NCBI GenBank assembly: GCA_947650845.1
Contig: CANSWW010000001.1
Coordinates: forward strand, 1-53,754
DNA: 53,754 nucleotides
Direction: 5' to 3'
Origin: an uncultured Lachnospiraceae bacterium
Lineage (GTDB): Bacteria > Bacillota > Clostridia > Lachnospirales > Lachnospiraceae
The position numbers were made by a program, and so were the translations under genes. Under the pieces are notes generated by a model. The model worked only from the letters and a program-made list of their open reading frames with translations. It made no database searches and was not told the DNA's origin. This document shows, one piece after another, positions 3,293 through 4,193 of this stretch. Within the stretch, counting starts at the first letter, position 1; every line of letters starts with the position of its first letter.

Positions 3293-3499
3293 TCAATGTT
3301 TCGTTTGGTATTCTTGCGCCAGATATGCATCGCTCATACAGTGCATATCGGAAACACCGTCCCGGATCAACGGATAGACTTCGGAACGATAGAAAAAGTC
3401 CAGCGCCGCATCCAGCGAGATACTCTGCTGTTTGGCGAAACACTCAATTATACGACAGTATTTTTTCTGAAGTAAAATCGGATTGGCATTCATATCCAT
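3293..3499 (-). CDS. DUF3791 domain-containing protein.
   Basis: 68 aa. The sequence pattern (QKKYCRIIECFAKQQSISLDAALDFFYRSEVY) resembles DUF3791 proteins. It overlaps the upstream gene by 10 nt. Confidence 0.75.
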   Translation of the reverse strand: MDMNANPILLQKKYCRIIECFAKQQSISLDAALDFFYRSEVYPLIRDGVSDMHCMSDAYLAQEYQTKH

Positions 3500-3960
3500 T
3501 CGCTCCCTTCAAAATGCAGCAGCCTCAGCGCTTTCTCTGTGCAAAAGCAGATTTGCAGGTTTGGCTGCTCATAGCGCAAGCGGTTGATTGCTTCGGCCTT
3601 ATCAATCAAACCGTCAAAAAACAGTTCTACCGTATTTAACACTCGATCGTTGACGACACCGCCAATCACAAGGTCATAATCCGTTGTATCGTTCCCACTG
3701 CGGCAGTTTAGTATGAATTTCAACCAATCCTCTGAGTAGGAATCAAATCTTAGCGTTATCAATTTACTTTCCTGATTTTCATCAAATAGATACTTAGATA
3801 TAATTCCATCTTTTCCTTTGCGTTTAAACTTGCCGTACCATTTGACCGCTTGTTCATACAATGGCGTCACATAGAAACCTCGCCCAAAATCCACATGGGG
3901 GCGGGAATGGGCCAAATCCGGCTCCGCAATTTCTAAGTAGGAACCATGATAGAGAGTCAT
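3490..3960 (-). CDS. DUF3990 domain-containing protein (possible ADP-ribosyltransferase-fold protein).
   Basis: 156 aa. It carries the N-terminal MTLYHGS...VDFGRGFYVTP and later DYDLVIGGVVNDRV motifs that I recognise as DUF3990. Start and stop overlap both neighbours. Confidence 0.8.
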   Translation of the reverse strand: MTLYHGSYLEIAEPDLAHSRPHVDFGRGFYVTPLYEQAVKWYGKFKRKGKDGIISKYLFDENQESKLITLRFDSYSEDWLKFILNCRSGNDTTDYDLVIGGVVNDRVLNTVELFFDGLIDKAEAINRLRYEQPNLQICFCTEKALRLLHFEGSEWI

Positions 3961-4193
3961 ACCTTTACCCCCCTTTCTTCCATCACATCAAGGAGGTCAT
4001 TTACAATGTATTCGCGGCTCTGGGTATGCAGAATTTCATATTCCGGCACGATATAACCATTCAGAATACCGCTTGCAGTAAACGTCTGATAAACCCGTTT
4101 GGCATCCACATTGAGCTTTGCGGCAACATGTTCAATGCAAAATATGGAAAATTCCAGCTCTTTGGAGTTTTTTATTTTCTCGTCCGGCAACAT
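3957..4193 (-). CDS. DUF3791 domain-containing protein.
   Basis: 78 aa (EFSIFCIEHVAAKLNVDAKRVYQTF...). It is a paralogue-like partner of 3293..3499 and has a 4-nt overlap with the DUF3990 gene. Confidence 0.75.
   Translation of the reverse strand: MLPDEKIKNSKELEFSIFCIEHVAAKLNVDAKRVYQTFTASGILNGYIVPEYEILHTQSREYIVNDLLDVMEERGVKV

Follow-up and report, generated by a model that had tools for sequence, protein, structure and literature searches.

The closest described counterpart of the locus reported here is PDC-M13, a phage-defence candidate in the PADLOC catalogue, which was defined from cassettes of the form FAM109>>FAM403>>FAM80 and their rotation and was proposed because it is found embedded within operons of the BREX, DISARM and type I R-M systems (Payne et al. 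2024, bioRxiv 10.1101/2024.01.29.577857). A mechanism, a link to ADP-ribosyltransferases (ARTs) and the paralogy of genes A and C are absent from the main text of that study. PDC-M13 has been counted 3,324 times in rumen MAGs. Related enzymatic domains are found in other settings. The polymorphic toxin family Tox-ART-HYD2, with the signature 'H, D, GFY, W, R' (Zhang et al. 2012, PMC3482391), and Serratia Rhs5-CT (PMC4524185) are C-terminal domains of large secreted toxins that are accompanied by unrelated immunity proteins. ParST, Xre-RES/MbcTA and DarTG are two-gene systems in which a small ART-fold toxin is co-transcribed with its neutraliser, the antitoxin being either an Xre-HTH/DUF2384 protein or a macrodomain. 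DarTG acts in phage defence. CmdTAC, reportedly described by Vassallo et al. in 2024, is said to be a tripartite toxin-antitoxin-chaperone defence system that acts through an ART toxin and abortive infection.

The cassette analyzed here lies in a 53,754-nt stretch of DNA from an uncultured Lachnospiraceae bacterium (hereafter the window, meaning this whole stretch) and comprises three minus-strand ORFs spanning 3957-4193 (78 aa), 3490-3960 (156 aa) and 3293-3499 (68 aa), designated genes A, B and C. These genes and the elements flanking them are as follows.

3957..4193, minus strand: gene A, 78-aa DUF3791 protein, PADLOC PDC-M13A; compact, with five predicted helices
3490..3960, minus strand: gene B, 156-aa DUF3990 protein, PDC-M13B; predicted ADP-ribosyltransferase-fold toxin with H5/Y30/D96
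3293..3493, minus strand: gene C, PDC-M13C; 66-aa DUF3791 paralogue that has diverged (68 aa if translation were to start at 3499)
4303..4331, minus strand: promoter-like sequence (TTGACT-17 nt-TACAAT) lying ~110 nt ahead of gene A (10/12 in a consensus scan; a consensus match only)
4217..4252, minus strand: dead pglX remnant, from the 3' end of the gene for a BREX pglX-type methyltransferase, encoding KNYSIFQDVLAK with an in-frame stop before it
3201..3243, no strand assigned: GC-rich hairpin separating gene C from a convergent 180-aa plus-strand ORF, with 14-nt arms (86% complementary) and a 15-nt loop

The cassette is a genuine three-gene operon that was gained horizontally. The translational coupling and the 4-nt A/B overlap claimed by an earlier, sequence-only reading of this DNA are present (ATGA, 3957-3960), and an overlap of this length is found in 69 of 76 A/B junctions from other species. 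The 10-nt B/C overlap claimed in the same reading does exist between the ORFs, but the real start of gene C is probably at 3493, in which case the B/C overlap would also be a 4-nt ATGA, as at A/B. This start is preferred because gene callers place it at the second ATG (3493, 66 aa) on identical metagenome contigs, because position 1 of the PADLOC model pairs with residue 3 of the 68-aa ORF, because the Shine-Dalgarno site GAAGGGAG (3510-3503) lies 9 nt from the ATG at 3493 and just 3 nt from that at 3499, and because 56 of 76 homologous cassettes show a 4-nt B/C overlap. Strong Shine-Dalgarno sites precede both B and C. Upstream of the promoter-like site, and on its strand, there is a hairpin resembling a terminator (4404-4384).

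PADLOC matched the contiguous minus-strand genes to PDC-M13A (E 2.7e-36), PDC-M13B (E 4.8e-66) and PDC-M13C (E 2.5e-37). The window cassette is a member of this phage-defence candidate, with the same gene order, the same strand and no structural difference, but it departs from PDC-M13 as defined in being solitary rather than embedded, with just a pglX fossil remaining. The suggestion that such cassettes had not been characterised as a system is thus correct only with regard to experiments, none of which were found in the literature for any cassette member, since the arrangement is already catalogued as PDC-M13, with a two-gene form listed as PDC-M10. Compared with the two-gene ART systems, the cassette encodes neither type of antitoxin. 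Pfam searches of A, B and C yielded no match to RES, DUF2384 or HTH_3, which places the cassette outside Xre-RES/ParST, its one tie to those systems being a resemblance in fold, and no DarT or macrodomain was matched in it by Pfam or PADLOC, which places it outside DarTG. CmdTAC resembles the cassette in having three genes and an ART toxin (predicted in the present case), and differs in that CmdC is a SecB-like chaperone and CmdA an unrelated antitoxin, whereas the cassette partners are paralogues of each other; Pfam detected no SecB-like domain in A, B or C, and A and C are all-helical DUF3791 paralogues.

Gene B matches the Pfam family DUF3990 (PF13151) with 168.6 bits (E 1e-49; gathering threshold 32.2 bits), its residues 1-150 covering positions 1-152 of the 152-position model. 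The placement of DUF3990 in Pfam's ART clan, already given in the earlier reading, was confirmed from the literature (PMC7955679), and the motifs on which the ART proposal had been based are all present: MTLYHGS at residues 1-7, DFGRGFYVT at 24-32 and DYDLVIGGVVND at 94-105, with 25 residues separating H5 from Y30. In an alignment of 56 diverse homologues (35-54% identity), both H5 and Y30 are invariant (56/56), as are D24, F29, W79, D96 and G100, while conservation reaches 90% or more at R87, D105 and Q136. The earlier assignment of gene B to the H-Y-E type holds for the His (Y4-H5-G6-S7) and Tyr (G26-R-G28-F29-Y30) elements, but not for the catalytic Glu expected at the start of strand 5, and the 56-sequence alignment contains no conserved Glu at all. 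D96, within D-x3-G100, stands directly before a predicted strand at 97-101, and we infer that the catalytic triad is H-Y-D, with D96 at the position expected for Glu. H-Y-D variants occur among the ART families named by Zhang et al. (2012, PMC3482391), and D96 fits them. H5, D24, G28-F29-Y30, W79 and R87 also reproduce the Tox-ART-HYD2 signature in its order, the two have comparable phyletic ranges, and an ART fold of the H-Y-E clade is predicted for gene B as well, so that DUF3990 is probably the Tox-ART-HYD2 family, an assignment drawn from the signature and not from sequence comparison. Unlike Tox-ART-HYD2 and Rhs5-CT domains, the 156-aa product of gene B stands on its own and has two DUF3791 partners. 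DUF3990 itself is annotated as a C-terminal toxin domain of T6SS Rhs proteins and effectors, which by analogy supports a toxin role for gene B.

Weak matches to ART-PolyVal were obtained for 30 of the 56 diverse DUF3990 members, but neither A, B and C nor the 56-sequence DUF3990 profile retrieved a PDB relative by sequence or profile search (PadR and others at E of at least 0.36), and hhalign of the DUF3990 profile against validated diphtheria toxin (DT) and ExoA sequences gave a probability of just 3-4%. The pairing with these toxins is local only: Y-H-G-[ST] (YHGT/YHGS), G-F-Y-x-[ST] (GFY54 of DT and GFY470 of ExoA with GFY30) and a second aromatic 11 residues on (Y65/Y481 versus W41) are aligned, H5 pairing with DT H21 and Y30 with DT Y54 and ExoA Y470. 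Global similarity to DT and ExoA is not significant, and gene B has Asp for Glu and no receptor or translocation domains. The AlphaFold2 (AF2) model of gene B has a pLDDT of 79, falling below 50 in the loop 20-25 beside motif 2. A Foldseek search of this model against the PDB returned a RES toxin, VPA0770, ParT, RhsP2-CT, exotoxin A, pertussis S1 and Tpt1, with ExoA domain III at a TM of ~0.4, and ART-PolyVal, DarT, Arr and PARP were among the matches in BFVD; the toxins of ParST, Xre-RES/MbcTA and DarTG are thus structural neighbours of the model. The structure search proposed earlier returned almost exclusively ART toxins, albeit as weak matches (best PDB E 1.8e-3, TM ~0.5), and the model suggests, with moderate confidence, that gene B has an ART-like fold.

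Both flanking genes had been assigned to DUF3791. For gene A this is well founded, with 81.2 bits (E 5e-23) against Pfam DUF3791 (PF12668; gathering threshold 25 bits). Gene C scores 20.0 bits and falls below that threshold, but alignment of the A and C families with hhalign (probability 86%, E 4.8e-6) and the retrieval of 77 of 81 C proteins by jackhmmer started from A identify it, at the level of sequence profiles, as a true distant paralogue of A. The AF2 model of gene A consists of five helices (pLDDT 92), and Foldseek found no significant PDB neighbour for it (best E 1.8). An HTH or antitoxin fold for DUF3791 was considered and rejected, as the scattered Foldseek matches of A to HTH proteins were not significant; so was a link to excisionases, the PHROG match being weak (E 0.11) and those to Xis, BldC and RacA short. 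Searches of NCBIfam and PHROGs assigned no family to A, B or C, and A and C carry no recognisable antitoxin, DNA-binding or protease-labile features.

The reading that we favor, with a probability of roughly one in two, is that the cassette is a mobile, self-contained tripartite toxin-antitoxin or abortive-infection module in which an ART toxin is held inactive by A and C. Gene B would be a small ADP-ribosyltransferase-fold enzyme with a DT/PARP-like NAD+ pocket, formed by Y-H5-G-S on strand 1, G-F-Y30 on strand 2 and the aromatic W41, with D96 in place of the catalytic Glu. The five-helix DUF3791 proteins A and C would be produced at fixed stoichiometry through translational coupling and would bind B as a pseudo-heterodimer, keeping it inactive until some trigger, for instance infection by a phage or the element being lost, freed or activated it. 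Active B would then use NAD+ to ADP-ribosylate an essential macromolecule, or may simply consume NAD+, and growth would stop. NAD+ use by B, the catalytic role of D96, the toxicity of B and its neutralisation by A and C, as well as a trigger, a target and an anti-phage function, are all features that we infer. Support for a type II toxin-antitoxin arrangement is indirect, coming from the coupling, the synteny, the fusions and the role of the domain as a toxin on Rhs proteins.

The distribution of the three genes bears on how A and C may act. The co-occurrence survey suggested earlier showed the trio to be almost universal: it is kept in ~71 of 84 DUF3990 genes from 80 loci, one species each. 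All cyclic gene orders (A-B-C, B-C-A and C-A-B) were found, the two-gene form from Bacteroides carries C and A as a single fused protein of 149 aa, and natural A-B, B-C and A-B-C fusions occur in divergent lineages. Taken together, the cyclic orders, the natural fusions and the conservation of the trio argue for A, B and C forming a 1:1:1 complex. The divergence of the three proteins is correlated (rho 0.78-0.87) and their conservation is alike (57%, 63% and 58% for A, B and C), whereas antitoxins usually diverge faster. Given these similar evolutionary rates and the stable single-chain A-B-C fusions, an obligate holoenzyme fits as well as a toxin-antitoxin pairing, with A and C as permanent regulatory or target-recognition subunits (adaptors or sensors) of an A-B-C complex that would itself be the active species, ADP-ribosylating an invader molecule such as phage DNA, RNA or protein directly and not killing the host. 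Embedding within BREX and type I R-M operons, which resembles that of accessory subunits, is also in keeping with such an enzyme. The fusions are nevertheless compatible with autoinhibition, for fused toxin-antitoxins exist, CapRel-SJ46 being an example; moreover, Rhs proteins deliver DUF3990 by itself as a toxin domain, which is paired there with unrelated immunity proteins, and distant viral homologues have no recognisable partners. We regard the obligate heterotrimer as a rather unlikely account.

A different mode of killing is conceivable for gene B, namely that it is an NADase or an NAD+ phosphorylase like RES/MbcT and arrests growth by draining NAD+. RES-type toxins (9r35 and 8gug) head its structural matches, and it lacks the catalytic Glu of H-Y-E transferases. 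The Foldseek E-values are, however, too weak for ranking ART subfamilies, and the sequence points elsewhere: the Pfam RES model is not matched, the R-E-S signature is missing, motifs 1 and 2 correspond to those of DT/PARP and not to those of RES or ParT, and the nearest sequence family is ART-PolyVal. NAD+ depletion as the sole activity therefore appears improbable.

The tripartite module that we favor is described as mobile, and the base composition, the distribution and the surroundings of the cassette agree with this. AT-richness, earlier judged by eye, is confirmed by computation, with a GC content of 0.40-0.43 over 3400-4400 against 0.55-0.66 in the flanks, and of 43.5% for the cassette against 56.7% for the remainder of the window; across species, the cassette lies below its flanks in GC in 62 of 65 loci. 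Upstream of gene A, KNYSIFQDVLAK shares 11 of 12 residues with the C-terminus KNYAIFQDVLAKIK* (tblastn E 1.5e-4) of a gene that stands directly before the cassette in three other loci (L011, L013 and L021), in the first of which it encodes an intact 1165-aa Eco57I/N6_Mtase protein; similar decayed remnants are found in two more (L016 and L030). As read from these alignments, the window cassette has a 12-codon dead pglX fossil upstream, which also explains an inverted repeat at 4224-4264 better than a role as operator. The cassette moves horizontally, and the proposal of horizontal acquisition is borne out by the low GC content and the fossil. Regarding the claimed boundaries, the GC-rich hairpin stands (arms 3201-3214 and 3230-3243) and is likely a bidirectional terminator and the left edge of the island, having been missed by a terminator scan because it has no T-run. 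The tandem repeat on the other side also exists (2 x 112 bp, 4418-4639), but is not part of the cassette: it has no match in Rfam, folds best on the strand opposite the cassette, and was rejected as a type III-like RNA antitoxin or operator, being missing from the loci of every other species.

The genomic neighborhoods are mixed. In some loci the cassette is embedded in BREX or type I R-M operons (L008, L011 and L080), lying between pglX and pglZ (L011), before hsdR (L080) or, in Moraxella, between hsdM and hsdS. In 78 loci, the genes directly adjoining the cassette mostly have housekeeping roles, with N6 methylases making up just ~5 of 138; these neighbours fall into 170 different Pfam families and show a modest R-M enrichment. 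Next to the window copy, too, they are housekeeping (SCIFF, tgt and serC/serA), which speaks against a defence-island setting for it, and a phage or plasmid origin of this copy was set aside, since DNA-level searches returned one short phage fragment and no plasmid. Elsewhere, homologues are present on 87 plasmids, and a small C. botulinum plasmid (17.5 kb, non-mobilizable) carries the cassette next to its rep gene. Several loci carry two or three cassettes. These plasmid copies and multiple cassettes, the solitary position of most chromosomal copies amid housekeeping genes, and the mobility indicated by low GC and the pglX fossil would suit a selfish addiction element that stabilises plasmids, islands or host operons by post-segregational killing and has no anti-phage role. 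The PADLOC call is based on cassettes recurring inside BREX and type I R-M operons, which argues against this, and addiction and defence roles can coexist; a purely selfish role is, in our estimate, very unlikely. Although E-to-D changes cripple classical ART toxins and B has no conserved Glu, a dead ART-like scaffold that binds NAD, ADP-ribose or nucleic acid as a sensor or regulator with no transfer activity is hardly credible, given that H, Y and Asp96 are strictly invariant at 35-54% identity, that the DUF3990 domain serves as a delivered toxin and that predicted H-Y-D toxin ART families are recognised.

The toxin-antitoxin or abortive-infection reading can be extended, with considerable tentativeness, to a new mechanism for PDC-M13, in which the DUF3791 pseudo-heterodimer may cage an H-Y-D ART at 1:1:1 and sense infection, analogously to fused toxin-antitoxin sensors, the freed enzyme would ADP-ribosylate a class of target new to defence ARTs, and the 0.9-kb cassette would spread across phyla by hopping in and out of BREX and R-M operons; this version is possible but doubtful. 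The window copy is unremarkable within a family that has already been catalogued. That family is very common in gut bacteria, with 3,056 protein clusters at 50% identity and more than 570 loci in GTDB species genomes, and few uncharacterised candidate defence loci of gut and rumen bacteria are more abundant than DUF3990/DUF3791 cassettes. The paralogy of A and C, the H-Y-D triad, the rotated gene orders and the fusions that occur in nature give experiments concrete points of attack. If an ART toxin is indeed gated by two paralogues, the cassette would represent a third architecture of ART-based toxin-antitoxin or defence systems beside DarTG and CmdTAC, two large DUF families would gain a function, and a passenger often met in BREX and type I R-M operons would be explained.

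The three minus-strand genes at 3293-4193 encode a DUF3791 protein (A), a DUF3990 protein (B) and a divergent DUF3791-type protein (C), and all three match the PADLOC models PDC-M13A, B and C (E 1e-36 to 1e-66), which describe a three-gene phage-defence candidate with a two-gene relative, PDC-M10. Going by these profile matches, the cassette is a further member of this already catalogued candidate family. The PDC ("phage defence candidate") systems were predicted from their embedding in operons of the BREX, DISARM and type I R-M kinds (guilt-by-embedding), in a study whose experiments were limited to Hma-embedded HEC systems and whose supplement bases PDC-M13 on a cassette of three families together with the rotated form of that cassette (10.1101/2024.01.29.577857); the PDC-M13 count in rumen MAGs is 3,324. 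A literature search found no experimental paper on DUF3990, DUF3791, PDC-M13 or PDC-M10, so that the sequence-only reading, which had called the module uncharacterised as a system, holds as regards experiment and not as regards cataloguing. That reading was largely right, with three corrections, concerning this listing, the catalytic triad of B and a neighboring tandem repeat. The features of the locus are as follows.

3957-4193, minus strand: gene A, ORF of 78 aa
3490-3960, minus strand: gene B, ORF of 156 aa
3293-3499, minus strand: gene C as longest ORF (68 aa), with a probable start at 3493 (66 aa)
4331-4303, minus strand: promoter-like TTGACT-17-TACAAT, consensus match
3201-3243: hairpin, inverted arms found
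4418-4639: tandem repeat, 2 x 112 bp, 90% identity

The three ORFs and the 4-nt ATGA overlap of A and B at 3957-3960 are present as first described, and an A/B overlap of this length recurs in 69 of 76 homologous cassettes. The 10-nt overlap originally proposed for B and C is most likely also a 4-nt ATGA, with C starting at its second ATG (3493), since gene callers chose this start on identical metagenome contigs, position 1 of the PADLOC C model falls on residue 3 of the 68-aa ORF, the Shine-Dalgarno sequence GAAGGGAG is spaced 9 nt from this ATG, and the B/C overlap is 4 nt in 56/76 homologous cassettes. A 180-aa plus-strand ORF at 2638-3180, also called as a gene on related contigs, converges on gene C; it has no Pfam domain and is K/E/P/A-rich, with tandem peptide repeats (EDAGKPEKAN x3).

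Both features said to bound the cassette, the hairpin and the tandem repeat, exist. The repeat is nevertheless unrelated to the cassette, as it is present only in same-strain contigs and absent from the cassettes of other species, has no Rfam match, and folds on the plus strand, where each 112-bp unit is predicted to form four hairpins (-51 kcal/mol, z = -5.7) directly upstream of an Amidase_6 gene (4668-6302, plus strand). The repeat may confound assembly, as suggested by four independent metagenome contigs that stop inside it, 254 nt upstream of gene A (~4447 in the window).

Gene B encodes a full-length DUF3990 protein (169 bits, Pfam) with a weak secondary match to ART-PolyVal, and sub-threshold ART-PolyVal matches occur in 30 of 56 diverse members of this family, which comprises 3,056 clusters at 50% identity and is assigned to Pfam's ADP-ribosyltransferase (ART) clan (PMC7955679). 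In a Foldseek search of the PDB, nearly all of the leading matches to the AlphaFold model of B (pLDDT 79, pTM 0.74) were ART toxins, with weak scores (best E 1.8e-3, TM ~0.5), the matches being the Xre-RES toxin, VPA0770, ParT, RhsP2-CT, a PE-like toxin, Tpt1, pertussis S1 and exotoxin A (ExoA). Among viral models the best match was a 202-aa phage protein (E 1.9e-12, 27% identity), which we take to be a DUF3990 homologue, possibly GP30 of Geobacillus virus E3; the others were ART-PolyVal-like, Arr, DarT, PARP and Tpt1 proteins. Clan and kind of structural neighbor support the proposed ART-like fold of B at moderate confidence, the E-values being weak.

Across the 56 members, which are 35-54% identical to B, H5, D24, F29, Y30, W79, D96 and G100 are invariant, and Y4, F25, G26, G28, T32, Q37, A38, F72, L80, R87, A103, D105 and Q136 are at least 90% conserved. 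H5 and Y30 are therefore conserved family-wide, one of the points on which the sequence-only reading had staked its claim. Local hhalign of the B family with the diphtheria toxin (DT) and ExoA catalytic domains, using sequences identical to PDB chains, paired YH21GT of DT with Y4H5G6S7, GFY54 (DT) and GFY470 (ExoA) with GFY30, and the second nicotinamide-stacking Tyr (DT Y65, ExoA Y481) with W41, at an overall probability of only 3-4%. No Glu is conserved among the 56 members; invariant D96 immediately precedes a predicted strand (97-101) that holds invariant G100, resembling E553-x3-G557 of ExoA. From this conservation we infer an H-Y-D triad (H5, Y30, D96), so that the first two motifs of the earlier assignment stand and its Glu does not. 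The predicted toxin families Tox-ART-HYD1 and Tox-ART-HYD2 have been placed within the H-Y-E clade (Zhang et al. 2012, PMC3482391). The signature of Tox-ART-HYD2, "H, D, GFY, W, R", matches DUF3990 residue for residue and in the same order, as does its phyletic range, and by these two comparisons we think that they are the same family. In Serratia and Enterobacter, T6SS Rhs proteins are annotated with DUF3990 as the toxin domain at their C-terminus.

A is a DUF3791 protein (81 bits, Pfam) and C falls just below the threshold of that family. BLAST finds no similarity between them; a jackhmmer profile seeded with A retrieves 77 of 81 C proteins, and hhalign aligns the two families over 49 columns (probability 86%, E 4.8e-6), which marks A and C as distant paralogues. 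The five-helix model of A (pLDDT 92) has no significant PDB neighbor (best E 1.8) from which a molecular activity could be read.

With each species represented by a single genome, a scan yielded >570 loci. The best 80 of these, from 80 species, are mostly from Clostridia, and include Bacteroidales, Veillonella, Myxococcota, Kiritimatiellia, Campylobacterota, Planctomycetota and Adlercreutzia. The trio does co-occur in other genomes: in this set A-B-C is complete around 71 of 84 B genes, the exceptions being mostly contig ends or broken B genes. Gene order varies, with B-C-A between hsdM and hsdS of a Moraxella type I R-M operon, C-A-B and B-C-A in IMG/VR contigs, and a 149-aa C-A fusion ahead of B on Bacteroides conjugative plasmids. 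HMM-verified natural fusions join A-B (representative proteins P0008, P0026, P0040, P0237), B-C (P0038, P0156, P0188, P0205, P0210, P0215, P0268) and A-B-C (P0251), and the divergence of A, B and C is tightly correlated (rho 0.78-0.87) at similar rates. Synteny, varied orders, fusions and correlated divergence together argue for a single complex of the three proteins in which A and C pair as a pseudo-heterodimer. Two further proteins, P0226 (310 aa) and P0232 (411 aa), end in DUF3990 and carry upstream of it a segment that is HsdS-like by eye; either the fusion is genuine, or the gene call has read through where a cassette lies within a type I R-M operon. Some genomes hold two or three cassettes within a few kb (loci L025, L064, L071, L058), including two complete triads ~3 kb apart (L025), three B genes (L064) and an extra C-A pair without B (L058). 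B is truncated or split with A and/or C retained in L037 (the isolate Negativibacillus massiliensis), L069, L079 and L081, as would be expected if a toxin gene were decaying.

The best-supported reading, to which we assign a probability of about one half, is a predicted tripartite toxin-antitoxin or abortive-infection module, in which B would be an NAD+-using H-Y-D ART toxin, the A-C pair would keep it inactive and a trigger would free it. It is distinctly less probable that A, B and C form an obligate holoenzyme directed at invaders. That B is an NADase is unlikely, and a purely selfish addiction module somewhat more so; B as a dead scaffold is very improbable.

The context of the predicted toxin-antitoxin or abortive-infection module varies widely. 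The cassette lies between BREX pglX and pglZ in L011, just before hsdR in L080, and adjoining rep on C. botulinum pCLI; homologues occur on 87 plasmids and rarely in phages (8 phage records; 61 of 2.9 million IMG/VR contigs). In Geobacillus virus E3 (L151, GP29-GP31) the 202-aa DUF3990 homologue GP30 has an integrase on one side and an Arc-like repressor on the other; two small flanking ORFs (66 and 54 aa) might be diverged partners. Immediate neighbors across 78 loci are very diverse, N6 methylases accounting for only ~5/138, and in the window they are housekeeping genes. At 6694-8282 lie a SCIFF six-cysteine peptide gene (47 aa, PF13165 E 7e-24) and its radical-SAM/SPASM maturase, a typical Clostridia marker pair, followed by tgt, a class-V aminotransferase and a D-2-hydroxyacid dehydrogenase (the latter two read as serC/serA).

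The AT-richness noted by eye was confirmed by computation, with GC of 0.40-0.43 over the cassette versus 0.55-0.66 in the flanks (43.5% overall versus 56.7% in the remainder of the window), and in 62 of 65 loci the cassette is likewise poorer in GC than its flanks, with a mean difference of -6.4 points (Wilcoxon p = 8e-12). Upstream of A, the minus strand at 4217-4252 encodes, after an in-frame stop, KNYSIFQDVLAK (12 codons), which shares 11/12 residues with the C-terminal end of the cassette-abutting gene in L011, L013 and L021; in L011 this gene encodes an intact PglX-like methyltransferase. By this match, the segment is a 12-codon fossil of the 3' end of a BREX pglX methyltransferase gene; similar decayed pglX remnants occur in L016 (annotated Bacteroidales) and L030, while the pglX end is intact in L011, L013 and L021. 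Low GC and the remnant both uphold the proposed horizontal acquisition, and, judging by the pglX ends and remnants, this cassette clade seems to go back to a copy embedded in BREX and to have taken the scrap of pglX along when it moved.
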